Shown here piece by piece: positions 12,879 through 61,372 of a DNA stretch of 64,000 nt. Each line of letters opens with the position of its first letter. Position 1 is the stretch's first letter. A program made the position numbers and the translations under genes. Below the pieces are notes generated by a model. The model saw only the letters and a program-made list of their open reading frames with translations. It was not told the DNA's origin and made no database searches. The DNA comes from Candidatus Binatia bacterium (lineage in GTDB: Bacteria; Desulfobacterota; Binatia; HRBIN30): assembly GCA_046327925.1 (NCBI GenBank), contig JAXLXM010000001.1, positions 462,390 to 526,389 of the forward strand, read 5' to 3'.

Positions 12879-12917
12879 GGCGTCACCGGCAACCGACCGT
12901 CTGTGGACTCGTGCCGC

Positions 12918-15431: not shown

Positions 15432-15559
15432 CTCTTCACCCCTTCCCGCGAGCGGCTGCGGCCATCGATCGGTCCACGTCCACCACGCGCTGCGCGGACG
15501 CCGCACGCGAACCGCGGCGCAGCACGCCTGTTGTGCTCTCTTTGAATGGCCTGGCGCCG

Positions 15560-15588
15560 CCTAAATCATAGCGGTCTTAGGTAGTCAA
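15560..15588 (-). promoter_or_regulatory. Candidate sigma-70 promoter for the second TBDR
   Basis: Minus strand reads TTGACT (15588..15583), 17 nt, TTTAGG (15565..15560), preceded by an A6 run. The -10 match is weak. Confidence 0.3.
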
Positions 15589-15824
15589 TTGGTTTTTTCG
15601 CGCCGGTGCGTGCGGCCGCACGCGCACGGCTCCGCGGCTCGGAGCCGGTTCTGAGGGGCCGGTAGTGAGACATCCATGTTACGCACCCACGTCGCCCGCG
15701 CACGGGAGCGGTAGTTCTTGGCTTAACGTGGGTGTCTCAGCAGGCCCACGGACCTCGTCCGCGCCGGTTCCGCCGGCTTCGTGTCGATGCTCCCCCGTTT
15801 CTCCCGCCCGCTGGATACCCACAC

Positions 15825-16634
15825 TCAGTTCACGTACCCGGCACCGCCGCCATCCACGCGCAGCGACGCGCCGGTGATGTAGGCAGCATGTTCCGACACG
15901 AGGAAGCAGGCTGCGGCGGCTACCTCTTCCACCTTGGCGGCCCGCCCCAGTGTGATCGTGGAGCGCCACACGTCGCGCAGTACGCGGCGTTCGAGCGCCG
16001 TACCGGTCTCGGTGATCCCGTGCGCCTGGGCCGCGCTCCGTATCGTGGCCTGCGTGTTGGCCGTCATCACCAGACCGGAAATCAGCGTATTGACCGTCAC
16101 GCCGCAATCGCCGAGCTCGCGCGACAGCGAGCACGCCACCGTATGTAGCGCCAGCTTTGCGGCCGAATACTCGGGATGCATCGCCATCGGCTTGAATGCC
16201 CCGCCGGTACTGATGTTCAGCACTCTGCCCCAGTGACGCGCGCGCATGGCGGGGACCAGGGCGCGGATCAACTGCACCGCATAGATCGTCGAGAACTGGT
16301 ACTGTCGCACCCAGTTCTCGATCGGGACGTCGAACCAGTTGTGGACGGATAGCGTCGCGCCGGCACTGTTGATCAGGATATCGATCGGACCCGTACCGAG
16401 CGCCTGCGCGGCGAGCCGTTCGACCTCCCGCGGATCGTCCAACGCGCCGATCAGTGGGGACGCCTTGCCGCCGCTGGCGCGGATTCGCTCGACGACCGCG
16501 TCGGCGTTCTTCGCGCTGCGGCCGTGCACAATCACCTCGACCCCTTCGTTCGCGAGCATCGCGGCGACGCCGGCGCCAATGCCGCTGCTCGATCCGGCAA
16601 TCAGTGCCCGGCGGCCCTCAATCCCCAGTTTCAT
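15825..16634 (-). CDS. SDR-family oxidoreductase
   Basis: 269 aa. N-terminal Rossmann motif RRALIAGSSSGIGAGVAAMLANEGVEVIVHGR, YSAAK catalytic motif, GGAGGAGA RBS. Confidence 0.9.
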   Translation of the reverse strand: MKLGIEGRRALIAGSSSGIGAGVAAMLANEGVEVIVHGRSAKNADAVVERIRASGGKASPLIGALDDPREVERLAAQALGTGPIDILINSAGATLSVHNWFDVPIENWVRQYQFSTIYAVQLIRALVPAMRARHWGRVLNISTGGAFKPMAMHPEYSAAKLALHTVACSLSRELGDCGVTVNTLISGLVMTANTQATIRSAAQAHGITETGTALERRVLRDVWRSTITLGRAAKVEEVAAAACFLVSEHAAYITGASLRVDGGGAGYVN

Positions 16635-16652
16635 TTCACCGTCTCCTCCCCG

Positions 16653-47145: not shown

Positions 47146-47303
47146 GCTCGGCCGGCGGCGTTTGTTGCAAGCGCGTCGGCGGCTGTGTACGCTGGCGCGC
47201 CTGTGGACGTGGCCGCGAGTCACGCGGCGCGCGGGTAGTTTTCTCGAGCGCGTGGCCGCGCGGCACGAGGTGACGGCCATGGCGGCGCACGGGGGAGATC
47301 CGA

Positions 47304-48110
47304 ATGTCGGACAGCGTACTCTTCGAGCAGCGGGGTGCCGTCGGCCTCGTCACGTTCAATCGTCCGGAGGCACTCAACGCGCTGAGCGCCGACCTCGTCG
47401 AAGGCATGCGCGCCGTGGTCGCGCGCGTGGCCGCCGACCGCTCCGTGCGGGCCCTGGTGCTCACCGGAGCCGGCCGCGCCTTTTGCGCGGGCGCCGACCT
47501 GTCGCCGGCCATGTTCGCGACCTTCGGGGTCGGCGATGGCAACGGGGGCGACCAGACGGCCCAAATGATGGAGCGTGCGTTCAATCCGATGATGCGCGAG
47601 CTCTACCGCCTGGAGAAGCCTACCGTGGCCGCGGTCAACGGCGTGGTGGCCGGCGGCGGCGTGGGGGTCGCCCTGGTTTGCGATATCGTGCTGGCCGCCC
47701 GTGCCGCCACGTTCTACCTGCCGTTCGGGCAGCGGCTCGGGATCGTCCCCGATCTGTGCTCCGCGTGGCTGCTGGTGCGCAACGTCGGACGGGCGCGCAC
47801 CCTCGGCCTGGCGTTGCTCGGCGACAAGATTTCGGCGGAGCAGGCCGAGCAGTGGGGCATCATCTGGCGTTGCGTGGACGATACGCGCTTGATGGAGGAG
47901 GCCCTCGGAGTCGCGCAACGTCTCGCCGACGGTCCCACCGAGGCGCTGGTGTGGACTCGGCGCGCAATCGACGCCGCGGATTTCAATACCTACGACGAGC
48001 AACTGGACTCCGAACGCGAGGCGCAGCGAGTGCTCGGCAATCGTCCCGCCGTCGTCGAAGGCTTCCTGGCTTTCCGCGAGAAGCGCAAGCCTCGCTTTCA
48101 CGAAGACTGA
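47304..48110 (+). CDS. Enoyl-CoA hydratase/isomerase (crotonase family)
   Basis: 268 aa. VGLVTFNRPEALNALS, VLTGAGRAFCAGADL, PTVAAVNGVVAGGG. Confidence 0.9.
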   Translation: MSDSVLFEQRGAVGLVTFNRPEALNALSADLVEGMRAVVARVAADRSVRALVLTGAGRAFCAGADLSPAMFATFGVGDGNGGDQTAQMMERAFNPMMRELYRLEKPTVAAVNGVVAGGGVGVALVCDIVLAARAATFYLPFGQRLGIVPDLCSAWLLVRNVGRARTLGLALLGDKISAEQAEQWGIIWRCVDDTRLMEEALGVAQRLADGPTEALVWTRRAIDAADFNTYDEQLDSEREAQRVLGNRPAVVEGFLAFREKRKPRFHED

Positions 48111-48216
48111 AGCGCGAGGCGCACGCACCGACGGCCACCCGTCCTCCCGCCCTGGACTTCATGGCGAAAGTCGACCAGCATACGGTCACCTACACATCGG
48201 CCGAAAGGAGCGGAAA

Positions 48217-48822
48217 ATGAAGCTATACTACGCGGCGCAGACGCGGGCGACCAGACCGCGCTGGTTGTTAGAGGAACTCGGCGTACCGTACGCCTTGGAG
48301 CGCCTCGACATGAGCAAGAAAGAACACAAGTCGCCGGAGTACCTACGTATCCATCCCGGCGGCCAGGTGCCGGCGTTCCAGGATGGCGATGTGACGCTCT
48401 TCGAATCGGCGGCGATCTGCGCGTACCTGGCCGACAAGTTTCCGGAGAAACACATGGCCCCGGCGCCCGGGACACCCGAGCGTGGTCTCTATTATCAGTG
48501 GCTGGTCTACTCGATCGCGACACTCGAGCCGCCGATCGTGCAGGTGATTCTCCACACCGTCATGTTGCCGGAAGCGCAACGTTCGGCCACCCAGGCCGAC
48601 GACGGGCGCAAGAATTTCGCCGCGGTGGCGCAGGTGCTGGAAAGGGCGCTGGACGCGCAGCAGTTCCTGGTCGGCAACCGCTTCTCGGCCGCCGATATCA
48701 TGATCGGCTCGACGCTCGGTTGGGCGCAAATGCTCGGCTTGTCGGGCGCGCACCCGACGCTCGAGGCCTACGTGGGAGCGCTGGCGGCTCGGCCAGCGTT
48801 CCAGCGCGCCCACGCCGATTGA
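48217..48822 (+). CDS. Glutathione S-transferase
   Basis: 201 aa, AAAGGAG RBS. EYLRIHPGGQVPAFQDGDVTLFESAAICAYLA. Confidence 0.88.
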   Translation: MKLYYAAQTRATRPRWLLEELGVPYALERLDMSKKEHKSPEYLRIHPGGQVPAFQDGDVTLFESAAICAYLADKFPEKHMAPAPGTPERGLYYQWLVYSIATLEPPIVQVILHTVMLPEAQRSATQADDGRKNFAAVAQVLERALDAQQFLVGNRFSAADIMIGSTLGWAQMLGLSGAHPTLEAYVGALAARPAFQRAHAD

Positions 48823-48960
48823 AGCCTGCCGTCTACCGGCGGTCGAAGCCGCGGCGCCAACGAGCCCCACCTCATCTCCGTAGACGCCCGCGCCACGGCC
48901 GCTGCCGACAGCGGCGGCGGTCGTCTGCCGGGAGCGGCGTCGTGCGGCCCGGCGGTAACG

Positions 48961-49284
48961 TTAGTGCTTGGCAGAACTCGGTGCGGCAGGCGCCGCCGGG
49001 ACGGCGGCGCCGAGAGTCAGTTGGGGCCGCACCTTGACCAACAACTTCTCCCCAATACCCCTGACTTGAACCAGGTCGTCGACGGACTTGAACGGTCCGT
49101 TCTGCGTTCGATACTCGACGATCGCCTGAGCCTTGACTTCTCCAAGACCCTTGACGGCGGCGAGATCCGCCGCCGTCGCCGTGTTGATATTGACCAGCTT
49201 GGATTCCGCGCCGTCGGCGTGCCGCGCGACGGATACCGCTCCAAGCAATGCAACCACCATCATTCCGAGAAACGCGTGCTTCAT
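48961..49284 (-). CDS. ComEA-family helix-hairpin-helix DNA-binding protein (exported)
   Basis: ORF 48961..49329 trimmed to ATG 49284 (GAGGAGG RBS). Signal peptide, then VNINTATAADLAAVKGLGEVKAQAIVEYRTQNGPFKSVDDLVQVRGIGEK. Confidence 0.85.
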   Translation of the reverse strand: MKHAFLGMMVVALLGAVSVARHADGAESKLVNINTATAADLAAVKGLGEVKAQAIVEYRTQNGPFKSVDDLVQVRGIGEKLLVKVRPQLTLGAAVPAAPAAPSSAKH

Positions 49285-49349
49285 ATGCTTACCTCCTCTG
49301 GCGTATCGACATAGAGCCGGGTACCGCACGACGCATACTGGTAATATAA

Positions 49350-49378
49350 TTGATCCTATTTGCTGTCAACAACATAAT
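49350..49378 (+). promoter_or_regulatory. Strong sigma-70-like promoter upstream of the ABC exporter
   Basis: TTGATC (49350..49355), 17 nt, CATAAT (49373..49378), in an AT-rich island ~85 nt upstream of ATG 49462. Confidence 0.5.
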
Positions 49379-49461
49379 GCCACTCTGTCGAGCCACGCGC
49401 GACGGGGTGTGGACCTCCACCGTTCGGACTGTCCAGGTTTCTTTTGTTCCCCTGAACTGGC

Positions 49462-51336
49462 ATGAGTATGCGGAAAGCACTCGCGGCAACTCCGATGGCG
49501 GCAAAGCACACCCCCATTCTTGCGCACGGCGCTGCGGACCCCGCCGCCCTGCTCGCCAGTGCGCGCTGGGCGCTTCACCTCGCATGGTCGACCAACGGTG
49601 GCCTGCTCGCCGGTGTCGCGGCGGTTGTGATGGCGCGCGGGCTGCTGCCGGCGGCGATGGCGGTCGCCGCACGCGGCATCGTCAACGCCACGGTGGCGGC
49701 GGTCAGAAGCACGGAACCGAGCGTCGCCACCGTGGTGCCGTGGCTGCTCCTCGGCCTGGCGTTGACCCTTGTCGACGGCGTCTCCAGCCTGGCCAGCAAG
49801 CTCTTCACCCAACGATTGCGCGACGATCTCAACTACCGCGTAACCGCGGACATTCTGTCGCACGCCGCACAGCTCGACCTGGCGTACTTCGAAGACCCCG
49901 GTTCGCAAGACGTGATCGAGCGCGCCAAGCACAACCCCGCCGAGCAGGTCGCCAGTTTCGTCACCGACACCTTGGCGTGTGTCGCCAGTGGGATTCAGAT
50001 CGCCTCGCTGCTCGGCATCCTGATCTTCATCGAGCCGCTCATTCTCCTCCTCGTCCTCCTGTTCGCGGCCCCATATCTGTGGTTCCAGTGGCACTTGGCG
50101 CTGCGGCAATACGCGCACGAGCATGCGCGCACAACCAAGCGGCGGTGGAGCAATTACTTCATCGCCTCCCTGACCAAACCGGCCTCCGTGGGCGAGGTGA
50201 AGATCCTGGGCCTCGCACCGTTGCTCATCGAGAAGTTCCGCTCGATCATGGCGGAGTTCCGCGACCAGGATCGCCTGCTCTACGTGCGCGGGTTCCGAGG
50301 CGGCTCGGTGTTCGTGATTGCCACCACGCTGGCGATCTACGCGATGTTTGTGCGCGTGGCGGTCCGCGTGGTTGGCGGCAGCTTGACGCTCGGCGATTTG
50401 GCCATCTTCGGGGGTGCCGCGACCCGGTTGCGCATCACGCTCGAAGGCTTCATCGCCTCGCTCACCGGCATCCTGCAGCGGACACTCCATATCGCGAACG
50501 TCACCGAGTTCCTTTCCGCGGCGCCGCAAGCCGCACATGGCGTGGGCTCCGGTGCGGTCGCCGGCGCGCGCGCTGATATCGTCTTCCGCGACGTGACGTT
50601 CACCTACCCGGGCGGCACGGAGGCGGCGCTGCAGGGCGTCTCGCTCCACATTCGGGCGGGCGAAACGGTCGCGTTTGTGGGTGAAAATGGGGCTGGCAAG
50701 AGCACGTTGGTGAAACTCATCGCGCGGCTCTACCACCCGGATGCGGGAGAGATTTTGCTCGACGGCGCCGACTTGCGCACCCTGGCGCGCGCGGCGGTGC
50801 ATGATCGAATTGCCTTCGTCTTCCAAAGTTTCGGCCGCTACGAAGCCACCGCCGCCGACAACATCGCCTACGGCGACTGGCGCCGGTTGCTAGACGATCC
50901 TGAGCGGATCCGGGAAATCGCGCGGCTGGCCGGTGTCCATGATATGGTGTCAGCGTTGCCCCAGGGCTACGACACGCTTCTCGGCCGCACCTTCGGGCAG
51001 GTCGACCTGTCTGGCGGCGAGTGGCAGAAAATCGCGGTCGCGCGCGCCTTCGCACGTAATGCGGCGCTGCTGATCCTCGACGAACCGACCTCCAACCTCG
51101 ACGCGCGCGCCGAATACGAGCTATTCTCGCGCTTCCGGCAACTGGCGCACGGCCGGACCACGATCATTGTCTCGCACCGTTTTTCCACGGTCAGCATGGC
51201 GGATCGCATCTTCGTCCTCGATCGCGGCCGCATCGTCGAATCGGGCACGCACCACGAACTCCTGACGCAAGCCGGCAGCTACGCCCAGCTCTACCGGCTG
51301 CAGCAGCGATCGATGTCGCCGCGCCCGTCGCCGTGA
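49462..51336 (+). CDS. ABC exporter, fused permease/ATPase (MsbA-like)
   Basis: 624 aa. Six predicted TM segments, then Walker A GENGAGKSTL, signature LSGGEWQKIAVAR, Walker B LLILDEPTSNLD. Confidence 0.92.
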   Translation: MSMRKALAATPMAAKHTPILAHGAADPAALLASARWALHLAWSTNGGLLAGVAAVVMARGLLPAAMAVAARGIVNATVAAVRSTEPSVATVVPWLLLGLALTLVDGVSSLASKLFTQRLRDDLNYRVTADILSHAAQLDLAYFEDPGSQDVIERAKHNPAEQVASFVTDTLACVASGIQIASLLGILIFIEPLILLLVLLFAAPYLWFQWHLALRQYAHEHARTTKRRWSNYFIASLTKPASVGEVKILGLAPLLIEKFRSIMAEFRDQDRLLYVRGFRGGSVFVIATTLAIYAMFVRVAVRVVGGSLTLGDLAIFGGAATRLRITLEGFIASLTGILQRTLHIANVTEFLSAAPQAAHGVGSGAVAGARADIVFRDVTFTYPGGTEAALQGVSLHIRAGETVAFVGENGAGKSTLVKLIARLYHPDAGEILLDGADLRTLARAAVHDRIAFVFQSFGRYEATAADNIAYGDWRRLLDDPERIREIARLAGVHDMVSALPQGYDTLLGRTFGQVDLSGGEWQKIAVARAFARNAALLILDEPTSNLDARAEYELFSRFRQLAHGRTTIIVSHRFSTVSMADRIFVLDRGRIVESGTHHELLTQAGSYAQLYRLQQRSMSPRPSP

Positions 51337-51651
51337 ACCGGAGGGCGGTCAACCCACCGAATTGCGGCGCCGCGCACGCTGACGCGGCTGCGGGATCATG
51401 CCCACACGGGCTCATTGGTGGAGCACCGATCGATCGTGGAAGAATTCAACGCGCGCGCACCCGCTTCCTGCGGTTCCAGGCTCGATTCCAGAAGACCCGC
51501 GGCACATTTCGCGCCGCCGCGGCGGCAAGTCCATTGGCGTTGGCCTCTGGTCCCACGGTTGCGAAGCCGAAGCGTGGTGGGGTAGTTCTTTGCGCTGCGG
51601 ACGCGGCATGCCAAGCGCGGTCGATAGAACCGGTATCGATAGGGGTCGAAG

Positions 51652-52371
51652 GTGCGCAGACCGAGCAACGAGTCGCCGATCGAGCCTCTCCATCGCCGGA
51701 TTGCCGCACACGGCGTGACACCGCTCGCGGTTGCGGGGCCGTATCGCAGCGGTACGTCGTTGGTGGCCGCCGTCTGCCACGCGCTTGGGGCCGACGTCGG
51801 TGCGCTGGCGAACAGAGCGACGCCGCGCAACCCAATCGGATCTTTCGAGGCGCCCCTGCTCGCCGAGCGCTGCCGGCAGATGTATACGGAGCCCTGGCTT
51901 GTGGAATCGGTCAACCGCACACAGCGCGTGACGTCGCTGGCTGCGTGGCTGAGCATGGCCATGACCGCCGCGGGTGGAGCGCAGATCATCGGCGGGAAAC
52001 ACCCGATCCTCTGTCTGTTGAGCGACGAGCTCCTGGAAGCCTGGGGCGAGCGGACGAAGTTTCTGTTCGTCAGGCGGCCGGTCGACGAAGCGATCGCATC
52101 CCTCAGAAAGACGAACTGGCTGCCATGGCGCGCCAACCCCGGATCGCATGAGCAGGCGATCGAGCGGCTCGCGGCGGCTCGCGACCGCGCCATCGAGCGG
52201 CTCGGCGCGCGATCTCTCGTCATCGACTATCACGAGATGCTCAGACGTCCGGAGAGCGCGGTCGACCGCATCGCCAGGTTCCTCGGCACAGGCTCCCCGG
52301 CGGGTGTGGCGCAGGCCATCGCACTGATCCAGCCGGCGCTGTACCGCACGAAAATAGAGCGCACGCGGTGA
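51652..52371 (+). CDS. Sulfotransferase-family protein
   Basis: 239 aa (GTG start; the true start may be nearer the P-loop-like PAPS motif AVAGPYRSGTSLV). KFLFVRRPVDEAIASL resembles the 3'-PB region. Confidence 0.55.
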   Translation: MRRPSNESPIEPLHRRIAAHGVTPLAVAGPYRSGTSLVAAVCHALGADVGALANRATPRNPIGSFEAPLLAERCRQMYTEPWLVESVNRTQRVTSLAAWLSMAMTAAGGAQIIGGKHPILCLLSDELLEAWGERTKFLFVRRPVDEAIASLRKTNWLPWRANPGSHEQAIERLAAARDRAIERLGARSLVIDYHEMLRRPESAVDRIARFLGTGSPAGVAQAIALIQPALYRTKIERTR

Positions 52372-52391
52372 GCGAGAAGCGGGCCGCTGCG

Positions 52392-53465
52392 CTACGCACC
52401 GCGCGGCGCGGACGGCCCGGACTCGGATGACGCGCCCTCCTGCCGGGCGTGGTCTGCACGACTCGCGGTGTGGCCGGAAGCGGCGCGCTCGCGCATCGCG
52501 GCTCGTACGCCCAGGCAAAAGTAATAGTACACGGCGCGGTGGTAGTAGCAGAGCGGCGGCCCCAGCGTGCGCCGCCGCTCCCAGCGCTCCGTCAGTGTGG
52601 CGATCCCATCGGGAATGCAGGGCAGCCGTTCGCTGAGCGCCAGCACGGCGCCGCGGAAGAGTCGCCGGGCCAACGGGCCTTGATCGAAACGCGCCAGCGG
52701 CGCCAGGTCGCCGACCTCGGCGGCGGGCTTCCGGACAAGCGCCGGGTGCTTCTCCGCCAGCAGCACGGCCGTCCGCCCGCGCGCCACGCTGTTCCTGGCC
52801 AGCGCGCAGAACGGTCTCAGATAGCGGTGGTGCGCAACTGCGGCGGCGCAAAAAGCGACGACAACGCCCGCCGAACGCAACCGCAAAAACAGCTCGCGAT
52901 CCTCATGGCCGTAGATTTGAAAGGATTCGTCGAACCCTCCTGTCCTGCTGAGCGATCCGGGGCGGATGGACATGTTCATGGTGTAGAAGTCAATCATTCG
53001 GAACACGTATCCGGGCTCCGCTAGGAGCGTCAACTTCCGTCCCCATCGAGCCGCGGTGTAGCGCACGTAGGGAGTCGACGTCGGATCGCAAACCATCGGG
53101 ACAGGCCCAAGGACGGCGAGATTCGACTGTCCGTGGTGCGCCCGCAGGTGGGCGGCAAGCAACCTCGGCGTGGCCTCCATGTCATCGTCCAGAAAGACGA
53201 TCACCTCGCCGCGCGCCTCCCGCGTGGCGGCGTTGCACGCCGCCGCCCTGCCGCGGTTAGGCTGCCAGAGGCGACGGAGCGTGTACGGCGCCGCAAAGCT
53301 GTCGACGAGCTCACGTGTCCCGTCCTCGGAGCCATCGATGGCCACGACCACCTCGTACGCCGAAGCCGGCAACTGCTGGGTCGCCAGTGCGGTCAGCGCG
53401 CGCCGCACCGCCTCGCGGCGGCCGTACGTCGGAATGACCACGCTGAGGTGCGGACGTTCGTTCAC
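52392..53465 (-). CDS. Family 2 glycosyltransferase
   Basis: ORF 52392..53621 trimmed to GTG 53465 (GTGA overlap with upstream stop). LSVVIPTYGRREAVRRAL, VVVAIDGSEDGT, VIVFLDDDM. Confidence 0.85.
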   Translation of the reverse strand: MNERPHLSVVIPTYGRREAVRRALTALATQQLPASAYEVVVAIDGSEDGTRELVDSFAAPYTLRRLWQPNRGRAAACNAATREARGEVIVFLDDDMEATPRLLAAHLRAHHGQSNLAVLGPVPMVCDPTSTPYVRYTAARWGRKLTLLAEPGYVFRMIDFYTMNMSIRPGSLSRTGGFDESFQIYGHEDRELFLRLRSAGVVVAFCAAAVAHHRYLRPFCALARNSVARGRTAVLLAEKHPALVRKPAAEVGDLAPLARFDQGPLARRLFRGAVLALSERLPCIPDGIATLTERWERRRTLGPPLCYYHRAVYYYFCLGVRAAMRERAASGHTASRADHARQEGASSESGPSAPRGA

Positions 53466-54604
53466 CGCCGCGCTCCCGCGGCGGCCGTTTCCATGAGCGC
53501 CACGAGCTGCGTCTTCAGCTCCCCTGCCGGATCGGGCGGTACCAATTCCCTGATCCGCTTCGCGCACAGGCCTCCCATGCGTTCCCATTGGTCCCGCTGC
53601 CGCCAGGCTCTCTCCAGGCACGCATCGAGGCTTCGCGTGGTTGGGGCCTCAGCGACGAACCCTGTGGAGGAATCCTCAATAAGCTCCGTCATGCCGGCGA
53701 CATCGGTGACCAGTGCGGGCCGGCCACACAACATGGCTTCGACCAGGGCCAAGGGCAGGCCCTCTTCCCGTGAAGGAAGGATGAGCATGTGGTTCTCTTC
53801 CCAGATCTTTTCGACATCCTCCGTTCTGCCACAGAGCTTCACGCTCGTGAGCCCGAGAGCCTGACGATGCCGATTGACCGTCTCTCGACAGCGCCCGCTC
53901 CCATAGAGATTGACCGCGAGCGCCCGCTGACGCCATTTCTCCATGGACAGGACTTGGAACAACACATCCTGGCCTTTCGCACCAGGATCCAATCGGCCCA
54001 CCAACGCCATCCGATACTCGCCTTGGTCCTGCGGCCAGCGGGGAGCACTGGCGTAGTCAACATTGAACGGATTCCGAACCACCCGTGCGTTTCGGAGGCG
54101 AAAGCCGAGCTTCGCGTTCATCAACGCGACACTTGCCTGAGACACAAACAGGCACGCCTGCGCCGCCGAGAGGTATTTCACGTAGTCTTTGGCCTGCAAA
54201 TCGTCCGGCCACATGACCTCCGAGACGACGTGAATGAGAACCGCGAACGGTACTCCCGTGTCGTAAACGCTTTTCAGTAAATTCAAGGAAGGACGGTCTT
54301 CCGCGGAGGAAATGAGCAGGAAATCGGGCCGCCACCGTCCACTCCAGTGCGGCAATGCTTCCCGGATCAAGTGACGCAGCCGTTGGGAATAGCTGCTCGC
54401 GGGCAGTCTCCAAACGATGCGGGCGCCCTTTCGTTGAAGCTCAGCGATGGCACGCACGGGGTCGGGCCATCGCCTCACCTCGGCGGTCACGGCATGACCA
54501 TCGTCCAACAACCGTGCTGCCGTCCGGCTCCAGAGTTCCTCGCTCCCGCCCCAAGGCCCGCGGTTGAGCGTCGAAATGAACGCCACTCGTTTCCGATCCG
54601 TCAT
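53462..54604 (-). CDS. Family 4 (GT-B) glycosyltransferase
   Basis: 380 aa. LPSREEGLPLALVEAMLCGRPALVTDVAGMTELIEDSSTGFV (E-x7-E region). Confidence 0.88.
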   Translation of the reverse strand: MTDRKRVAFISTLNRGPWGGSEELWSRTAARLLDDGHAVTAEVRRWPDPVRAIAELQRKGARIVWRLPASSYSQRLRHLIREALPHWSGRWRPDFLLISSAEDRPSLNLLKSVYDTGVPFAVLIHVVSEVMWPDDLQAKDYVKYLSAAQACLFVSQASVALMNAKLGFRLRNARVVRNPFNVDYASAPRWPQDQGEYRMALVGRLDPGAKGQDVLFQVLSMEKWRQRALAVNLYGSGRCRETVNRHRQALGLTSVKLCGRTEDVEKIWEENHMLILPSREEGLPLALVEAMLCGRPALVTDVAGMTELIEDSSTGFVAEAPTTRSLDACLERAWRQRDQWERMGGLCAKRIRELVPPDPAGELKTQLVALMETAAAGARR

Positions 54605-54610
54605 CAGCGG

Positions 54611-55771
54611 CTACGGTATCCCGTCCGCGGCAAGGGCATGGTCTTCGCACCCACCGTCTTTGGGGTGGAGCATGTGCCGGTAAACGGCTTCATGGCAGGC
54701 GAGAAAGCGCTCCATCCCGAAGATCGTGGTCACGCGCACTCTGCCGGCACGGCCCATCGCGGCACGCCGCGATTCATCCCCAAGCACGGCGAGAATGGCG
54801 GCGCCGAGAGCCGCCACATCTTTCGGAGGCACGAGAAGACCCGTCTCGCCGTCCGCCACCTCTTCCGGAATGCCTCCGACCCGCGAGGCGACGACCGGGA
54901 TTTCACAGGCCATCGCCTCCAGGACAGTATAGGGGAGATTATCCGCAACGGTTGCCGCCACGAACACATCCGCCGCCGAGTAGTACAGCGATAGCCGATC
55001 ATTGGGCACAAGTGCCATCGGTCGGACGGCGGGGTGGTTGGGAACCAGGCCTTCGCCGGCGACCATCAAGAGGGCGTCCGGATATCTCGCCAAGACCAGC
55101 TTCACAAAAGCCTCCGCAAGGTAGTTCATTCCCTTACGTGGGTTCCAATTCCACGGCCGCGCCTCGTACGCGACGTGCAAGACAACCTTCTTGTCCTCGG
55201 GCAGCCCCAATGCGCGACGCGCCCCGCCGACGTGATGGAACTTGCCGGCATCGATTCCATACGGGACGTGATGCATGCGAAACCTCTTGAGCTCGGTATT
55301 CCGCAGTCGCGCTTCCAACCATTTGCTCGAGATAATGAGCTGGGTCGACGAATGGGTGAGGTAGTGCACGATCTGCTTCTTGGACCGCATGCGAAAATAT
55401 CGGTTCAGGAGTCCACTGTACCGAATTGCGGACGGTAGCAGTGGACAATCGAAACACGTCCGGTTGCGGGAACAGTCCCAACACGCATCCTGAAAGGTGC
55501 CGATCGGCCGGGGATCGTGCGGCGTAAAGCAGGTCGGATACCTTTGGGAGATGAGCGCGAGCAGATGATACGGGAATTGACCGTAATAGGAATGGCAATG
55601 GACGAGGTGGGGATCGTACTCGCGCAACCCGGACAGCAGGGTGCCGACGGTGTCACTCCTTGCCTCAGGAAAATAGCGGACCTGATGTCTGCCGCGTAAA
55701 CCCGCCTCGAGGTCCCGCGCACAACGCGTCGCGCCTGCCTCAAACAATTCGTTCACGATCGCGAGCTTCAT
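54611..55771 (-). CDS. Family 4 (GT-B) glycosyltransferase
   Basis: ORF 54611..56656 trimmed to ATG 55771 (ATGA overlap with upstream stop). MKLAIVNELF..., NLPYTVLEAMACEIPVVASRVGGIPEEVADGETGLLV. Confidence 0.85.
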   Translation of the reverse strand: MKLAIVNELFEAGATRCARDLEAGLRGRHQVRYFPEARSDTVGTLLSGLREYDPHLVHCHSYYGQFPYHLLALISQRYPTCFTPHDPRPIGTFQDACWDCSRNRTCFDCPLLPSAIRYSGLLNRYFRMRSKKQIVHYLTHSSTQLIISSKWLEARLRNTELKRFRMHHVPYGIDAGKFHHVGGARRALGLPEDKKVVLHVAYEARPWNWNPRKGMNYLAEAFVKLVLARYPDALLMVAGEGLVPNHPAVRPMALVPNDRLSLYYSAADVFVAATVADNLPYTVLEAMACEIPVVASRVGGIPEEVADGETGLLVPPKDVAALGAAILAVLGDESRRAAMGRAGRVRVTTIFGMERFLACHEAVYRHMLHPKDGGCEDHALAADGIP

Positions 55772-56754
55772 GTCCGCAGGCGCTCGACCGCGGACTGACG
55801 CGGCGGAGCACCGCGCCCGAGGTGCTCCGCCTCCCGCAGCCAGATCTCGGCGCGCCCAGGCTCGATGCGGCAGAGTTCGCGCAGGCTGTCGCGGTACTGC
55901 TGGGCGAGGGCCTTGCGGATGTCCGTGGGTATTTCCACGGGCACCGACGCATTCACCCGCCGGTACACGTCGGCGGGGCATGGATCGCTGCGCGCGCCGA
56001 GGAATTGGAGAATGGAACGTAGCAGCGTTTCCGGATCCTCGACCAAGTCCTCGTAATACGCGAGATGGAAACGCTCTGGCCCGAAATACCGGCGCCAGCG
56101 CCGCAGGATCGAGGCGTAGTCTCCTCGCTGGAACACCGCGGACTTGCTGAAGAAACGACGCGCGGCGCGCTCGTCGGTCAGCGAAAACCCGTAAAATTGT
56201 GCGTTCAGCTTGAAGTTCGACCACGCACGCTCGATCGGATTCCTGAGCACCATGACGATGCGGGCTTCCGGGAGCAGTTCGCGCGCCACGGCCACATCCT
56301 CGTCCGCGAGCAGGGAGTACCCAGGCGTGAGATCGCCGGTAATCTTGTCGCCTCCGAACATGAACAGACGCCGGTACCAGTCCGGACCGATGTTCGAAAG
56401 CAAATAGCTCAGGGAGAACCAGAGCGCCGCCCAGCGATCGGTCTCGGCCTTCCGGTACCACGTCAGCGGCTTGAGGTATCGTCGCACCATCTTCTGACTG
56501 GGTGACGGGGTGAAGATCACGGACAGGCGCCTCCACCCTGGCGGCAACGCATGGTGGCTCGGAGTGGCGTATTGTGGGGAGCGATCGAAGAAGTGGATCT
56601 CCTTGACTGGTGCCAACCAGAAGTCGGGGTGCCGATTGAGATTCCGGTACAGCCAACTGGTTCCGGACCGCTGCGCCCCAATGACCAGAAAGTGGCGGGC
56701 CAGGCCGAGCGACTTGCCGGCCGCTACGCCGTGAGCCGGCGCGCTTGGCGCCAT
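55768..56754 (-). CDS. Sulfotransferase-family protein
   Basis: ORF 55768..56979 trimmed to ATG 56754 (TAATG overlap). FLVIGAQRSGTSWLYRNLNRHPDF (5'-PSB motif), IVMVLRNPIERAWS (3'-PB motif). Confidence 0.85.
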   Translation of the reverse strand: MAPSAPAHGVAAGKSLGLARHFLVIGAQRSGTSWLYRNLNRHPDFWLAPVKEIHFFDRSPQYATPSHHALPPGWRRLSVIFTPSPSQKMVRRYLKPLTWYRKAETDRWAALWFSLSYLLSNIGPDWYRRLFMFGGDKITGDLTPGYSLLADEDVAVARELLPEARIVMVLRNPIERAWSNFKLNAQFYGFSLTDERAARRFFSKSAVFQRGDYASILRRWRRYFGPERFHLAYYEDLVEDPETLLRSILQFLGARSDPCPADVYRRVNASVPVEIPTDIRKALAQQYRDSLRELCRIEPGRAEIWLREAEHLGRGAPPRQSAVERLRT

Positions 56755-57689
56755 TAGCGCTCCTCCCCGCGGTCGCCGCGGAAACGTTCGACCCACGCGT
56801 CGGTCTTGGCGTCCGCGATCTTGACGTACTTGGAGCGGACGCCGTCCAGCCGTTCGCGGCTGCCTGCGAGGCCGAGCCGCTCGAGCACCCGGCCGACGGC
56901 GTCTGGAAGGCTCGTGCAGACCTCCTCGTAGGTCAGGTGCAATGGCTCGATCGCATTCGACCGAAAGAAGCCGCGCCACGCCTGCTCCGATCTCCTGATC
57001 CGTTCCAAGGCCGCTTCGAGTGCCGGGCGATCGTACCCCGGTTCGATGCGGGCCGGCCGTGGAGTCACGTAGAGGTGCCCGCGGTCATCGCGGTGCCAGA
57101 CGCGAGATCCGGCGGCCCGATAGAAGGAGATGGCCTGCCGCAGCTTGTCCGTGCGGGTCAGAAACAGGAACGTCGGCGCCGGGAATACGGATCGCAAGAT
57201 GTCGAGATCGCTCCCGCCTCGGAAGTCGGGGATCCGGCGCAGTCGGCGCAGCACCGGGAGAAAGTCTGCCCACATCACCTTGGTCCCGAAGATCCCCTGC
57301 CGATTGGCTTCCCCGTCGATCAGATGGTCGAGGAATGCGAGCAGGCCCCGCCCGCGGAGTACGGCCCCCAGGGATGCCTGCTGTGGATTGAGGTAAAATC
57401 GCTCGCGAGAGAGATCCAGGTCGGCCACGGTGCGCACGGCGTCGCCGAGAAACGTGCTGCCACTTCTCCAGGTGGTGCACAAGAAACACGATCGGCGGGT
57501 TCCCGTAGTGGGCCGGAATTCGCGCGGCTTATGGAACAACAGCCCGCGAACTTCCCAGCCGAGCCGCAACGTCGCACGAGAGAACACCGCTCGGGCTGTC
57601 GAGTGCAATCGCTGGGGAAGGTTCACTCTTTGTGGAACTTGTGGAACGGACGAGCAGTCCGCCCTTGCGTCGCTCCAACAATGTTGCAT
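56754..57689 (-). CDS. Stf0-type sulfotransferase
   Basis: ORF 56754..57698. CFLCTTWRSGSTFLGD, GIFGTKVMW, FLFLTRTDKLRQAISFYRA and LHLTYEEV match the Stf0 (trehalose 2-sulfotransferase-like) pattern. The start is uncertain and may lie downstream at a GTG/TTG. Confidence 0.75.
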   Translation of the reverse strand: MQHCWSDARADCSSVPQVPQRVNLPQRLHSTARAVFSRATLRLGWEVRGLLFHKPREFRPTTGTRRSCFLCTTWRSGSTFLGDAVRTVADLDLSRERFYLNPQQASLGAVLRGRGLLAFLDHLIDGEANRQGIFGTKVMWADFLPVLRRLRRIPDFRGGSDLDILRSVFPAPTFLFLTRTDKLRQAISFYRAAGSRVWHRDDRGHLYVTPRPARIEPGYDRPALEAALERIRRSEQAWRGFFRSNAIEPLHLTYEEVCTSLPDAVGRVLERLGLAGSRERLDGVRSKYVKIADAKTDAWVERFRGDRGEER

Positions 57690-58901
57690 GATGAGCACGT
57701 GCCAGCGTCATCGGAAAGTGTCAAGCAAGCGGTTGTCCTATGGATGGGCGCCGAGGACGGTATGTACGAGGTCTCGGGCCTGCGTCTGCCCTTTTTTCTC
57801 GGTGGGGCACAAAAGAGCATCGCCGAGAACATCAAGATCCTACAGCGCGACTACGCAGTGACACTGGCGTTGATGGGGCTGCGGCGGGTGCCGGACGGGT
57901 GCCGTGCCCCTGGAGTGCGGATCGTCCCGATCCCGCCGCTGTTCAGGGCGGCGCTGCCCTCGGCCAGTCTCCTACGGACCCTGGGGTGCGCATGTCCCTT
58001 CGGCCTGCCCGGATCCCGACGCGAAGCCGGCCTCGTGCTCGTCCACAGCCACTTCCTGTCGGCGGTACTGTGCAGGCTGCTGCTGCCCAGATGGCGAGTC
58101 TGTGTGGTCATCGAGGGCCGTTTCCGCAGCCTCGCGTGGTCCCCTTATGTCCCGCTCGCGCTACGCTGCATCTACTTCCTTCTTGCACTGCTATCGGTCC
58201 TCATCGTGAACCGGGTAGTGATCGACAGCATGCAGACCTGGCCGATGACGTCGCGGATCCGGCGGCTGCGCCGCAAGACCCGCTATGTTGCGAACTCAGT
58301 GGATCTAGATCTGTTCCGGCCCGAAGGCCGGCGCTGGCAGCCAGCGCCGCTACGCCGCGGTGCTACCGCACGCGTGCTGCTTTACGTCGGACGGCTCGAC
58401 TTCGAGGTGCAGAAGGATCCGGGACTGCTCTTCCGAGCCTTTCGCGCGGTGCGCGAGCGTTACCCGGAACTCCACCTCGTAGTGGTGGGCGTCGCACGCC
58501 GGCAGTTCCGCACGTTGCTGCGGCGGCACAATGGCGGACGCCGCGAACACGTTCACCTGGTCGCCCCCCTCGCCAATGACGCCCTGCCCCGCGTATTCCG
58601 CGGGGCGGACCTGACCGTGCTCACTTCGCGCTATGAGGGTACCCCGTACGCGGTGCTCGAATCGCTCGCTTGCGGCACACCCGTGGCGACCACCCCGGTT
58701 GTCGAACCTGGACTCATTGAGGACGGCATCAACGGCTTCGTATCGCGGTGCCATACCCCCGAGCGGTTCGCGGACGCGCTCGCCAGGGGACTGGAGTTGT
58801 CGGAACGCTTACGCCAAAGGGGGGGACGCGACGGCCTCCTCCCCTCCCGCTACCGCCTCGCCATGCGCGCGGAGAACCTGCGGAGAGCGCTCGCGACCTG
58901 A
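57681..58901 (+). CDS. Family 4 (GT-B) glycosyltransferase, opposite strand to its neighbours
   Basis: C-terminal part of ORF 56745..58901, ATG 57681 or 57744. VLLYVGRLDFEVQKDPGLL, LTSRYEGTPYAVLESLACGTPVATTPVVEPGLIEDGINGFV. Confidence 0.8.
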   Translation: MLHDEHVPASSESVKQAVVLWMGAEDGMYEVSGLRLPFFLGGAQKSIAENIKILQRDYAVTLALMGLRRVPDGCRAPGVRIVPIPPLFRAALPSASLLRTLGCACPFGLPGSRREAGLVLVHSHFLSAVLCRLLLPRWRVCVVIEGRFRSLAWSPYVPLALRCIYFLLALLSVLIVNRVVIDSMQTWPMTSRIRRLRRKTRYVANSVDLDLFRPEGRRWQPAPLRRGATARVLLYVGRLDFEVQKDPGLLFRAFRAVRERYPELHLVVVGVARRQFRTLLRRHNGGRREHVHLVAPLANDALPRVFRGADLTVLTSRYEGTPYAVLESLACGTPVATTPVVEPGLIEDGINGFVSRCHTPERFADALARGLELSERLRQRGGRDGLLPSRYRLAMRAENLRRALAT

Positions 58902-59855
58902 CGAATGCTCCTGTGTCAGGGCGCGCTCGCCGGCGATAAAGCCCGCCACCCAGAAGCTGTGGAACAGCACGAGAACGGGGGAGAGGATCAGGATCTTTGC
59001 AAAGCCGATCCACGACAGATTCCGCAGCTCGTGCCAAAGCAGGTGCCCGAGCATCAGCACCGGTGCCCCGATCATGAGGACCGGCCAGCGCATGACCCAG
59101 CGGCTACCGGTCTCCGAACAGCGACGCCAGCGCCAGCCGCCAATGCCGAGCTGATACTGGTAGCGGGCGACCCGACGGAATCCACGCTTGTTCACGTGCC
59201 GAACCACCGGCACTGGGGAGTAGCGCAGCGTGCGGCCGGCAGCGGCCAGACGGTGATTCACGATCACGTCCTCGCCCAGGCCGGAAACGAATCGCACCCC
59301 GTTGAGTGCGTCGCGGCGATACCCCGCATTCGCGCCCGCGAAGAAGGGCCACCCGCGACGCGTGCACCTCCACCGTCGCGGCAGCAGGCGGCAGAATTCG
59401 AGGTAGTAATTCACCGTCCCCGTCAGGCTCCAAGGCGTGCCGTTCTCGATCGGCCCGCCAACGGCGTCGGCCTCCTCCAGCCCTTGGGCCAGCAACCGGA
59501 CCCAATCCGGGGGAACCCGAACGTCGGCGTCGGTGAACAGGATCCTGCTCCCGCGGGCGTAGCGCAGGCCCAAGTTGCGGGCCGCACCACAGCTCAGCCG
59601 GCCGTTGCGCCGGACCAACACCACGGAGGGGAAGCCATCACGCACGACGCCGGCAGACCGGTCAGTGGAGCTGTCCACCACGACGACCTCGTAGGGCAAG
59701 GCGACGTCCTGCCGCAGCAGAGAGGTTAGGGCCGCGGCGATATGATCCTGCTCGTTGTAACAGGGAAGAATGACGCTCACGACCGGTGCGTACGTCGCGG
59801 CGGCACACCCTCCCGGAGCGCTGCCCACCCTCACCCGATCACGGTCTACGATCAT
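58809..59855 (-). CDS. Family 2 glycosyltransferase (membrane-associated)
   Basis: ORF 58809..59894, ATG 59855 or 59894. VSVILPCYNEQDHIAAAL, VVVVDSSTDRS, ILFTDADV, C-terminal TM helices. The last ~30 aa overlap the convergent gene and look like read-through. Confidence 0.82.
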   Translation of the reverse strand: MIVDRDRVRVGSAPGGCAAATYAPVVSVILPCYNEQDHIAAALTSLLRQDVALPYEVVVVDSSTDRSAGVVRDGFPSVVLVRRNGRLSCGAARNLGLRYARGSRILFTDADVRVPPDWVRLLAQGLEEADAVGGPIENGTPWSLTGTVNYYLEFCRLLPRRWRCTRRGWPFFAGANAGYRRDALNGVRFVSGLGEDVIVNHRLAAAGRTLRYSPVPVVRHVNKRGFRRVARYQYQLGIGGWRWRRCSETGSRWVMRWPVLMIGAPVLMLGHLLWHELRNLSWIGFAKILILSPVLVLFHSFWVAGFIAGERALTQEHSSGRERSPQVLRAHGEAVAGGEEAVASPPLA

Positions 59856-59871
59856 GCCAGGCAAACCGCCC

Positions 59872-60426
59872 TCAGCCTGAAGAAGCCGGGCCATCGACGT
59901 CTGCGTCGAGGCCAGGCGAGGCGGCCGCGCTCAAGGACTGGAGGAACGCCGCCGCCACACCAGGACTCTGAAACTCGAACGCCGCCAGATGCGGATACCG
60001 CATTTGCATCCGATGCACCCGATCCCGCCATTGCCGGCCGCGGTCAGCGATTCGCGCAACCCAGCCGAGCCGTTCCAGGACGAGCCGCAATGAACGACCT
60101 TTCCGGCGACGAACCCAGCACAGCGTACGCTTGAGACGGCGCCAGAATATCGTGTGAACGGGGTAGTTCAGCAGGATGACGGTCGTGGCTCGCGGCCAGG
60201 CCAGAGCGAGAACGTTGCGGCGGTTTCCATCGAGGACCCATTGGCTCCTGCCGACCGATTGCGCGGCACGCTCCGGGAGGTCCTCGATTTTATTGTCCGC
60301 CTGCCGACGTAGCGCGTCGACTTCCACGTGCGGGACGGCCAGGATGACGGCGAGGCGGCGTGCGAACGTGGTCTTTCCCACCCCACTTGGGCCGATCACC
60401 AGAATACGCGCCGGATCATACTTCAC
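59872..60426 (-). CDS. P-loop NTPase, adenylate-kinase/topology-modulation-protein-like
   Basis: ORF 59872..60558. Start proposed at GTG 60426 (VKYDPARILVIGPSGVGKTTFARRLA). WVLDGN motif. Confidence 0.65.
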   Translation of the reverse strand: MKYDPARILVIGPSGVGKTTFARRLAVILAVPHVEVDALRRQADNKIEDLPERAAQSVGRSQWVLDGNRRNVLALAWPRATTVILLNYPVHTIFWRRLKRTLCWVRRRKGRSLRLVLERLGWVARIADRGRQWRDRVHRMQMRYPHLAAFEFQSPGVAAAFLQSLSAAASPGLDADVDGPASSG

Positions 60427-60845
60427 GGCGCGCCAGCGACTCCCATCGTGTCGGTTGGTGTTCTCAGGTCCGGCGAGCACGTGCGCACCGGCCACCGATG
60501 GCGCCGCTACGACACCACGGACCGCGGCGGCAGGTTCAACGTGTTCGGTCCTTGACACTCACGTCACACCCCTACGTGACCGACGCTCACTTACGTCAGT
60601 TCATGACGTGGGTCAAGCGACAAACGGCCGGAGGATACCACACCCGTAGCGACTCCGCTGACGCAGTCTTGCGGAGTATTTCTCGCCGCCAACAACCGAC
60701 GAGGATGCCGACGCCCGACGCTCGAAGTTTGCGGCGGACACGGACGGCTTTTCTACTTCTTCGACGGACGAGAGCCGCGTGGTGTTCTCCGGCGATTCCA
60801 CGATCGTACGGCACGGCGCACCGGGCAACGTCACCGCGGATCTTC

Positions 60846-61295
60846 CTAGCTACCAAGCTTCGTCTTTAGATACTCGCCGATCAAGAGTGCCGTTGGATAC
60901 AGCACCTGCTCCTCGGTCTGTGTATGCAAGACCAGCTTCTCGGCAAACCGCTCGTACTCTCGCTTGCGCTCCTGCTTTGCCGCGGCAGCGAGCTCCTGCA
61001 GCGCGCCTACGATCGCTTTGTGCTCCTCCAGCATCTCGGCAAGCTCCGCCTGCAACCGATCGGTCATCGCCAGGGCGTCTCGCATCTCCGGCGTGATTTT
61101 CCCTTCCGCCAGCGCGGACAGCAGACCGAGCGGCGGTAAGGCGACTGCCTCCTCTTTCACAAAATGGGGATGCAGGAGCTTGGCGACCGCTTGTGCAGCA
61201 CTTCCGATCCTGCCGGCCGCTTTGGTGGCCTTCGCCAATTCTACGTGAAGCTCCTCATGCTCCAGTACCAACGGCAGCGGAATCCTGAATTCCAT
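60846..61295 (-). CDS. Hemerythrin-like domain protein
   Basis: 149 aa. His/Glu spacing LEHEELHVEL, HPHFVKEE, EEHKAIV, LHTQTEEQVLYP is typical of hemerythrin-like metal sites. Confidence 0.65.
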   Translation of the reverse strand: MEFRIPLPLVLEHEELHVELAKATKAAGRIGSAAQAVAKLLHPHFVKEEAVALPPLGLLSALAEGKITPEMRDALAMTDRLQAELAEMLEEHKAIVGALQELAAAAKQERKREYERFAEKLVLHTQTEEQVLYPTALLIGEYLKTKLGS

Positions 61296-61372
61296 ACCCT
61301 GTCCTCCTTACGCGATGCGGCAGGTACTCCCGTGCGCCCTTACCGGCTGTAGCCAGCCCCGGGGGGACGCCG

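Follow-up and report, generated by a model that had tools for sequence, protein, structure and literature searches.

A ten-gene accessory island with three sulfotransferases, predicted to make and export a sulfated glycoconjugate, in a Candidatus Binatia genome

The stretch of DNA analysed here (the window) comprises 64,000 nucleotides from a Candidatus Binatia bacterium, and between positions 49352 and 60735 it contains an accessory island of ten genes, designated G1 to G10. Pfam profiles confirm the gene content given in a preliminary description, namely an ABC exporter, three sulfotransferases including one of Stf0 type, five glycosyltransferases and a P-loop NTPase, and the coordinates given there lie close to the limits of the island as set by comparison within the genus. 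The sulfotransferases carry motifs for binding the sulfate donor 3'-phosphoadenosine-5'-phosphosulfate (PAPS), the genome can supply PAPS, and glycosyltransferases and exporter are linked; thus a sulfated glycoconjugate is the best reading. On this reading the island would be a self-contained cassette that makes and exports its product, an oligosaccharide on a lipid carrier being sulfated in the cytoplasm and then flipped by G1, and we put the probability of this at about 55%.

Reading frames were chosen by third-position G+C (GC3) and domain content, the window being ~65% G+C. Gene identities are Pfam profile matches judged against gathering scores, with NCBIfam equivalog cut-offs used for finer assignment. 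All the domains match above the gathering score, save ABC_membrane in G1 (22.7 bits vs 28). The features are as follows.

49462-51336, + strand: G1, ABCB/MsbA-fold half-transporter with a transmembrane domain (TMD) and a nucleotide-binding domain (NBD); ABC_tran 1.1e-31 and ABC_membrane
51652-52371, + strand: G2, small soluble PAPS-type sulfotransferase of 239 aa; Sulfotransfer_3 7.6e-10, 39.8 bits vs 27
52392-53465, - strand: G3, GT2 glycosyltransferase, EpsD-like below cut-off; GT2 1.4e-24
53462-54604, - strand: G4, GT4 glycosyltransferase; GT4 1.5e-22
54611-55771, - strand: G5, GT4 glycosyltransferase; GT4 2.1e-26
55768-56754, - strand: G6, carbohydrate-type sulfotransferase, 3-OST-like; Sulfotransfer_3 3.9e-22, Sulfotransfer_1 2.8e-18
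56754-57698, - strand: G7, Stf0-family sulfotransferase; PF09037 1.2e-33
57744-58901, + strand: G8, GT4 glycosyltransferase, pointing away from G7 and towards G9; GT4 3.8e-25
58809-59894, - strand: G9, membrane-anchored GT2, a GT-A domain followed by two C-terminal hydrophobic helices; GT2 6.4e-26
59872-60558, - strand: G10, P-loop NTPase/kinase-like, adenylate-kinase-like protein; AAA_33 1.6e-7
49352-60735: accessory island carrying all ten genes, 11.4 kb, from blastn against the same-genus genome G003
49350-49378, + strand: sigma-70-like promoter match, TTGATC-17-CATAAT, at the edge of the island and ~85 nt ahead of G1
51337-51651: 315 nt of non-coding DNA separating G1 from G2, each of the three frames containing stops

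Three sulfotransferases and the supply of PAPS

G2, G6 and G7 are genuine sulfotransferases by fold, and each has both of the motifs that bind PAPS, the 5'-phosphosulfate-binding (5'-PSB) and the 3'-phosphate-binding (3'-PB) motif. The preliminary description had made its prediction depend on these PAPS-binding residues, and they are kept in all three. By a 19-residue hydropathy scan all three proteins lack hydrophobic segments, and they are therefore taken to be cytoplasmic. PAPS is also cytoplasmic, and with soluble sulfotransferases this places sulfation before export.

The Stf0-type enzyme G7 scores 117.1 bits against the family profile PF09037 (cut-off 22), or 113.5 bits in a scan of the genome, and aligns to the Stf0 crystal structure 1TEX with an E-value of 4.8e-22. 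Its TTWRSGST sequence falls on the RSGST 5'-phosphosulfate loop of 1TEX, and LTRTDKLRQAIS aligns to IHRPDVVSQAVS, the 3'-phosphate-binding motif of that structure. CTTWRSGST and LTRxDKLRQAIS are conserved, with R182 and S191 invariant in 7 family members. Against the trehalose 2-sulfotransferase equivalog NF047724 the score is 79.9 bits, where the cut-off is 400. By its profile scores, then, G7 is placed in the Stf0 family and outside the trehalose 2-sulfotransferase equivalog: the family membership proposed in the preliminary description stands, while its analogy with mycobacterial sulfolipid synthesis extends to the fold only.

Relatives of G7 are scarce. There are none in 185,579 species genomes, and a search of 5.8 billion proteins yields only six, the nearest useful one at 59% identity. 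A gene of this type is absent from 40 relatives of the host. Across the phylum, 2 of 301 genomes have a member of the Stf0 family, and a set of 14 control genomes has none. The nearest relative lies in a different glycan locus (L003 9650-20343, GCA_044867785.1), where its neighbours are a Sulfotransfer_4-like gene, a 1158-aa AMP-binding/PP-binding/GT92 fusion, a GT2, two GT4 genes and an IS1595 transposase. The same locus contains, at 15680-15869, a frameshifted fragment matching the N-terminus of G2.

For G6, alignment to solved structures gives 3RNL, a bacterial sulfotransferase (8.4e-18), and heparan sulfate 3-O-sulfotransferases including 3-OST-3 (1.2e-9). The elements aligned are QRSGTS, the catalytic glutamate within KEIHFF, and RNPIERAWS. 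It has no close relative in the 185,579 species genomes, the best matches being at 27-29% identity. G2 matches nothing in the PDB by sequence; its family of five members has PYRSGTS, K116-H117 and R142...S150 as invariants. The AlphaFold2 (AF2) model of G2 has a pLDDT of 86, and its top 17 Foldseek matches (E<=0.001) are all sulfotransferases, led by TPST2 and TPST1 (9e-7) and followed by the CurM sulfotransferase, Stf9 and Stf1. When the G2 family is compared with G6 using hhalign the expected 3'-PB and C-terminal motifs are aligned, in a match that is statistically weak (probability 5.8%).

The sulfate donor is available. In the 18 contigs (5.07 Mb) of the genome, a Sat-type ATP sulfurylase is encoded at C18:159618-160319 and a standalone APS kinase CysC at C11:764194-764643, and thus PAPS can be made from genes elsewhere on the chromosome. 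A CysH-type reductase gene is found at C2:100687. G10 was considered as a local APS kinase and rejected; its similarity to the CysC of the genome is within noise, and it has no PF01583 match.

How unusual is such a set of sulfotransferases? The genome has 23 Sulfotransfer_3 matches, of which 21 are outside the island, and these include a large expansion of ~390-500-aa paralogues with E-values of 1e-25 to 1e-45; example loci are C13:378981, C3:60751, C4:66290-88976, C14:47263-250695 and C11:47810-850329. All 25 relatives searched, drawn from the same genus, family and order, carry between 2 and 24 copies, and any copy at all is found in 2 of the 14 control genomes. Sulfation as such is therefore a lineage trait, and what is unusual here is the Stf0-type gene, together with the clustering with glycosyltransferases and an exporter. 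The rarity suggested at the outset thus holds for the Stf0 type, but not for sulfotransferases as such. With 24 sulfotransferase genes in 5.07 Mb, at least three would fall within 11.4 kb with a chance of ~2.5e-5, and the clustering in the island is not due to chance.

The exporter, the glycosyltransferases and the proposed product

The exporter G1 had been called MsbA-like. This is right for the fold, of the ABCB/MsbA type: the PDB matches are MsbA (1.7e-66) and also ABCB1 and ABCB4, with a type-IV exporter layout. It is not right for identity, as G1 scores 312 bits against the MsbA model TIGR02203 (cut-off 602) and 263 against NF008381 (cut-off 867). The PglK model NF050066 gives 128.6 bits (cut-off 1000), through the NBD only, which leaves room for an analogy in function. 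With scores below the cut-offs, the substrate class is not readable from homology. Orthologues of the TMD are found in 9 of 40 relatives, and G1 is therefore an accessory exporter and not the housekeeping MsbA, with which conclusion the sub-threshold MsbA and PglK scores agree. We therefore treat it as a predicted flippase or exporter. Pfam finds in it no C39 peptidase domain of the kind typical of peptide exporters.

The relatives of G1 are the most informative part of the comparison; retrieval of the TMD family gave 155. Orthologues 80% identical to G1 over the whole protein are present on contig L119, from the sister genome G003, and on contig L118, where their neighbours are a GT4, a GT2 and a GT11-like protein that are unrelated to the glycosyltransferases of the island; there is no sulfotransferase. 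Two more distant members of the family sit directly after a GT2. Among the Pfam-matched genes in five G1-family contexts there is none of the Wzx, Wzy or priming-transferase families, several further genes in these contexts having no Pfam match at all. Glycosyltransferases beside a G1-family exporter, without Wzx, Wzy or a priming enzyme, fit an exporter of a fully assembled lipid-linked glycan.

The contexts hold other genes worth recording. Conserved proteins of 278-578 aa lacking any Pfam match are encoded near G1-family exporters at L118 3165-4901 and 5106-5942, L119 1637-2473 and L120 5424-8881, and are candidates for new glycan-modifying or acceptor proteins. On L120, from a Candidatus Binatia metagenome-assembled genome (MAG; GCA_035541895.1), the region 11877-18845 has a G1-family exporter adjoining four ketoacyl-synthase genes and two B12-binding radical SAM genes. 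The cluster also holds short-chain dehydrogenase, LPG_synthase_TM and ICMT genes, and may be an unusual exporter-linked lipid pathway. Within G1 itself, the TTKRRW motif (residues 223-229, window about 50128-50148) is invariant or nearly so in 31 G1-family exporters. Conserved basic residues of the TMD were considered as sites of cargo binding, an idea that was dropped as TTKRRW is probably located in the cytoplasmic loop after TM4.

A wider proposal can be made, if only tentatively. G1 could define an undescribed ABCB-type family of glycan or glycolipid exporters in Binatia-like soil bacteria, in which the exporter is conserved (80% identity between sister genomes) while the genes beside it, for glycosyltransferases and modifying enzymes, are exchanged as a block. 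Surface glycans would then vary in a serotype-like manner without any Wzx, Wzy or priming gene in cis, with the island as the sulfated variant of this system, making a tri-sulfated, heparin-like anionic oligosaccharide in an organism that is terrestrial and neither cyanobacterial nor actinobacterial. We regard this larger picture as doubtful.

As we infer it, in carrier, sugars, sulfation sites and the role of G10 as much as in substrate, order of steps, flipping by G1 and final location, the pathway would begin on the cytoplasmic side of the inner membrane, where G9, G3, G4, G5 and G8 would build a short hetero-oligosaccharide on a lipid carrier in the membrane. One candidate carrier is undecaprenyl phosphate, with priming by an enzyme from another locus; the other is a membrane lipid that G9 glycosylates directly. 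G2, G6 and G7 would then add up to three sulfate esters, with PAPS supplied by Sat and CysC from the chromosome. Once complete, the anionic glycan on its lipid would be flipped by G1 to the periplasmic leaflet, as MsbA, PglK and Wzk do for their own substrates, and could then be kept as a glycolipid or passed to a surface acceptor.

The glycosyltransferases might also be read in terms of a polymer. G3, G4, G5 and G8 have their best NCBIfam matches to exopolysaccharide (EPS)-type models (EpsD at 5.7e-58, EpsE and PEP-CTERM stp2), all below cut-off. The product could be a sulfated EPS, capsule or O-antigen assembled by Wzx/Wzy/Wzy_C-type machinery elsewhere, with G1 an accessory or exporting something else. 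Two Bac_transf priming enzymes and three Wzy_C genes, for proteins of ligase/polymerase type, are indeed present outside the island (C14:254951-256849, C1:922423, C1:946600 and C11:464957), one locus also holding a sulfotransferase, and published sulfated EPS and capsular polysaccharide (CPS) loci pair glycosyltransferases with sulfotransferases (PMC8205485, PMC11641403). Yet an exporter is linked to homologues of G2-G4 on the independent contig L034, and exporters of the G1 family recur with glycosyltransferase-only cassettes. Moreover, a Pfam scan of the ten island proteins reveals no Wzx, Wzy, polysaccharide co-polymerase (PCP), outer-membrane export (OPX), priming-transferase or PAPS-synthesis gene. 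The preliminary description had stated as much of Wzx, Wzy and PAPS synthesis for the window, and its statement holds for the ten proteins to which the profile scan was confined. An accessory island that relies on distant machinery is conceivable, if less parsimonious, and we consider the polymer an unlikely product, though one to be taken seriously.

The region C14:243000-262000 (L117) merits a separate remark. It contains a sigma-54 two-component pair, a 317-aa Sulfotransfer_3 protein, a Wzy_C-family gene (C14:254951), a Bac_transf, a TMEM260-like GT-C and a GT4, and may be a second sulfated-glycan locus.

A different kind of product is suggested by G9. This GT2 ends in two membrane helices and shows weak Glyco_transf_21 and Glyco_trans_2_3 signatures, and the ~300-aa family spans its residues 36-322. 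G9 and G10 might glycosylate a membrane lipid that the GT4 and GT2 enzymes extend, the sulfotransferases decorate and G1 flips, giving either a sulfated glycolipid in free form or an oligosaccharide secreted with its sulfates, in both cases without an undecaprenyl carrier. In its logic this would resemble mycobacterial sulfolipid or the sulfated Nod factors. There is no priming transferase in the island or in any G1-family locus examined, and in the Binatia MAG a G1-family exporter adjoins the ketoacyl-synthase/B12-radical-SAM lipid cluster. The substrate of the characterised Stf0 enzyme is trehalose, a small free sugar, and such an acceptor would suit this scheme. However, the island lacks any acyltransferase, polyketide synthase (PKS) or lipid-synthesis gene. 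The AF2 model of G9 (pLDDT 88) has the membrane mannosyltransferase PcManGT (6YV7) as its best full-length fold match, and its fold matches are generic GT-A ones with TM scores of 0.45-0.57, which are not decisive for a polyprenyl-phosphate glycosyltransferase or a processive synthase. Nor do the curated models help, with 27.3 bits for G9 against NodC (cut-off 550) and the low score of G7 against the Stf0 equivalog noted above. Such a carrier-free product seems to us rather improbable.

Limits, layout and ancestry of the island

Comparison with G003 (L030) by blastn gives homology at window positions 47158-48818, 48930-49351 and 60736-61309, with none between the last two. On the left, homology ends at 49351, the end of a small gene for a ComEA-like helix-hairpin-helix (HhH) protein, and it resumes at 60736, upstream of a hemerythrin gene. 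The slot between the glutathione S-transferase (GST) and ComEA-like genes on one side and the hemerythrin, DUF6448 and RND genes on the other (window 48823-49351 and 60736-61300) is variable across the genus. In G003 the slot is occupied by a glucan phosphorylase gene, and NorBC-like genes stand further left, between the GST and the ComEA-like gene. In G002 the stretch from GST to RND is filled by 3.8 kb of different genes, which encode a PIN/RHH toxin-antitoxin pair, an alcohol dehydrogenase and a membrane protein. Each of the ten island genes has a single copy in the genome, and the island is confined to this genome within its genus. Its G+C content is 65.3%, compared with 64.9% for the genome. 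A mobile-element origin was examined and rejected, there being no flanking direct repeats, no deviation in G+C and no integrase or transposase match among the ten genes.

The strands of the genes from G1 to G10 run as two plus, five minus, one plus and two minus, so that there are at least four transcription units (+,-,+,-). On the minus strand the junctions are GTGA at 53462-53465, ATGA at 55768-55771 and TAATG at 56752-56756, and translational coupling joins G7, G6 and G5, and likewise G4 and G3. The preliminary description had these overlaps correctly, but the consecutive genes that it joined do not form one co-directional run or a single operon, and G1 and G2 are separated by 315 nt and not by 6-20 nt. 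G8 starts at ATG 57744 or 57762, and its 3' end overlaps convergently with that of G9 by 93 nt (58809-58901); the overlap may be a run-on tail of G9, whose last 40 residues are modelled with pLDDT <50. The true start of G10 may be at 60426. For G7, alignment with relatives suggests that the start is likely to be near 57590, which would leave ~150 nt for divergent G7 and G8 promoters. The promoter match upstream of G1 is the sole sigma-70-like site in the region, where 1.7 would be expected by chance; it is thus within chance expectation, and suggestive by its position only. A search of the island gaps against Rfam for riboswitches and small RNAs gave zero matches at E<=1. The G1-G2 gap was also inspected for a small peptide gene of the RaxX-like kind; the idea was discarded, with no convincing open reading frame or coding bias.

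Parts of the island recur elsewhere. L034, a 6-kb contig, has homologues of G2 (66%), G1 (51%), G3 (74%) and G4 (71%) together, along with a polysaccharide deacetylase (PF01522). On a JGI contig a 707-aa gene, cut at the contig end and without a Pfam record, lies 10 nt upstream of a G2 homologue, and from its position is taken for an ABC exporter. Thus the association of exporter, sulfotransferase, GT2 and GT4 is not peculiar to this genome. L122 carries an AAA_33 gene and then a GT2 in the same order as G10 and G9 (36% identity for G10, 68% for G9), and judged by homology the partner of G9 in G10 is a P-loop protein of kinase-like type. Two metagenome loci, L047 and L082, retain the G5-G4 pair (G5 48-49%, G4 40-41% identity). 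G4 also has >556 metagenome relatives at 37-45% identity in other gene contexts.

A number of observations weigh against a single cassette with a single product. By its sequence relationships the island is a mosaic, in which G1 is like exporters of sister genomes that stand beside unrelated glycosyltransferases, and G2-G4 come from the cassette of another lineage. The 315-nt gap, possibly a recombination junction, sets G1 apart from G2. Given this ancestry and the gap, it is an assumption that the ten genes all serve one function. Separate regulation of the four transcription units is also conceivable. G1 falls under the cut-offs for HepA as well as for MsbA and PglK, and the ten genes include neither a priming transferase nor an acyltransferase. 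Finally, the best structural matches of G2 are tyrosylprotein sulfotransferases, and going by the model its acceptor may be something other than a sugar.

Taken to its limit, this would make the ten genes a recombinational patchwork without a common product, some of them inactive or acting on unrelated substrates, as for instance if the TPST-like G2 and G1 sulfated and exported a peptide. The uneven similarities would be as expected for such an assembly, with G1 80% identical to the sister exporters, G2-G4 66-74% to L034, G7 59% to L003 and G6 without a close relative, and the G8/G9 overlap and the long G1-G2 gap would add to the impression of disorder. But none of the ten reading frames is interrupted, GC3 shows their coding bias and the catalytic motifs are conserved, the runs G7-G6-G5 and G4-G3 are translationally coupled, and a peptide exporter would be expected to have the C39 domain that G1 lacks. 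Mosaic structure is moreover normal for surface-glycan loci. We find the patchwork very improbable, and continue to prefer the cassette for a lipid-linked sulfated oligosaccharide.

Comparison with known sulfated-glycan systems

Sulfated glycans are abundant in animals and algae, and few bacterial ones are tied to genes; the published gene-linked cases that we found are in cyanobacteria and marine isolates, plus Actinoplanes. If our reading is correct, the island offers a compact 11.4-kb cassette, exporter included, with three sulfotransferase subfamilies, from which the specificities of bacterial sugar sulfation could be learned and with which defined sulfated oligosaccharides could be made. 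It would also be evidence that a widespread, sulfotransferase-rich soil lineage sulfates its surface glycans. A conserved ABC exporter with exchangeable glycan cassettes would in addition bear on surface variation, and on the evasion of phage and predators, in uncultured soil bacteria.

In the synechan (xss) cluster of Synechocystis PCC 6803, genes for two sulfotransferases and eight glycosyltransferases stand with those for Wzx, Wzy, PCP and priming transferase (PMC8205485). Marine Vibrio and Cobetia have loci for sulfated capsules (PMC11641403, PMC11766843). Like the island, these loci cluster several glycosyltransferases with more than one PAPS-type sulfotransferase of distinct subfamilies; PAPS comes from genes outside the cluster, and sulfation is taken to happen on the cytoplasmic side, ahead of export. 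The island differs from xss in having an ABCB-type half-transporter in place of Wzx, Wzy, PCP and priming transferase, and so is not of the synechan type. It has three sulfotransferases, one of them Stf0-type, and its host is an uncultured soil bacterium, in contrast to the cyanobacterium and marine gammaproteobacteria of the known loci. With sulfated EPS and CPS loci published also for Pontiella and Actinoplanes, in addition to the cyanobacterial, Vibrio and Cobetia examples, the earlier suggestion of rarity outside marine and actinobacterial hosts was overstated. A locus of this kind is uncommon in bacteria, but not unprecedented.

The individual sulfotransferases have relatives in quite different settings. 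G7 resembles mycobacterial Stf0 in Pfam family, in its alignment to 1TEX and in having both the RSGST loop and the 3'-phosphate-binding motif. Unlike the sulfolipid-1 pathway, however, the island has no counterparts of Pks2, PapA or MmpL8, and the context is one of glycosyltransferases and an ABC exporter. G6 similarly shares the PAPS loop, catalytic glutamate and 3'-PB motif with the heparan sulfate 3-O-sulfotransferases and 3RNL, although identity is low and G6 is a cytoplasmic bacterial enzyme, not one of the Golgi. The Nod-factor system (NodABC, NodH, NodIJ) is not matched. G9 is far below the NodC cut-off, the exporter is of ABCB type and not ABC-2, and the island has no deacetylase or acyltransferase, though the L034 cassette does carry its PF01522 deacetylase.

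A further comparison is with the ABC flippases. MsbA flips lipid A-core, PglK the Campylobacter N-glycan and Wzk the Helicobacter O-antigen, and both PglK and Wzk are encoded with glycosyltransferases and without Wzx or Wzy. G1 differs in scoring far under the curated cut-offs for MsbA and PglK, in being accessory (9 of 40 relatives) and in having a predicted cargo that is sulfated. With all three flippases it nonetheless shares the TMD-NBD architecture and the type-IV exporter fold, and with PglK and Wzk a place among glycosyltransferases where neither Wzx nor Wzy is found.

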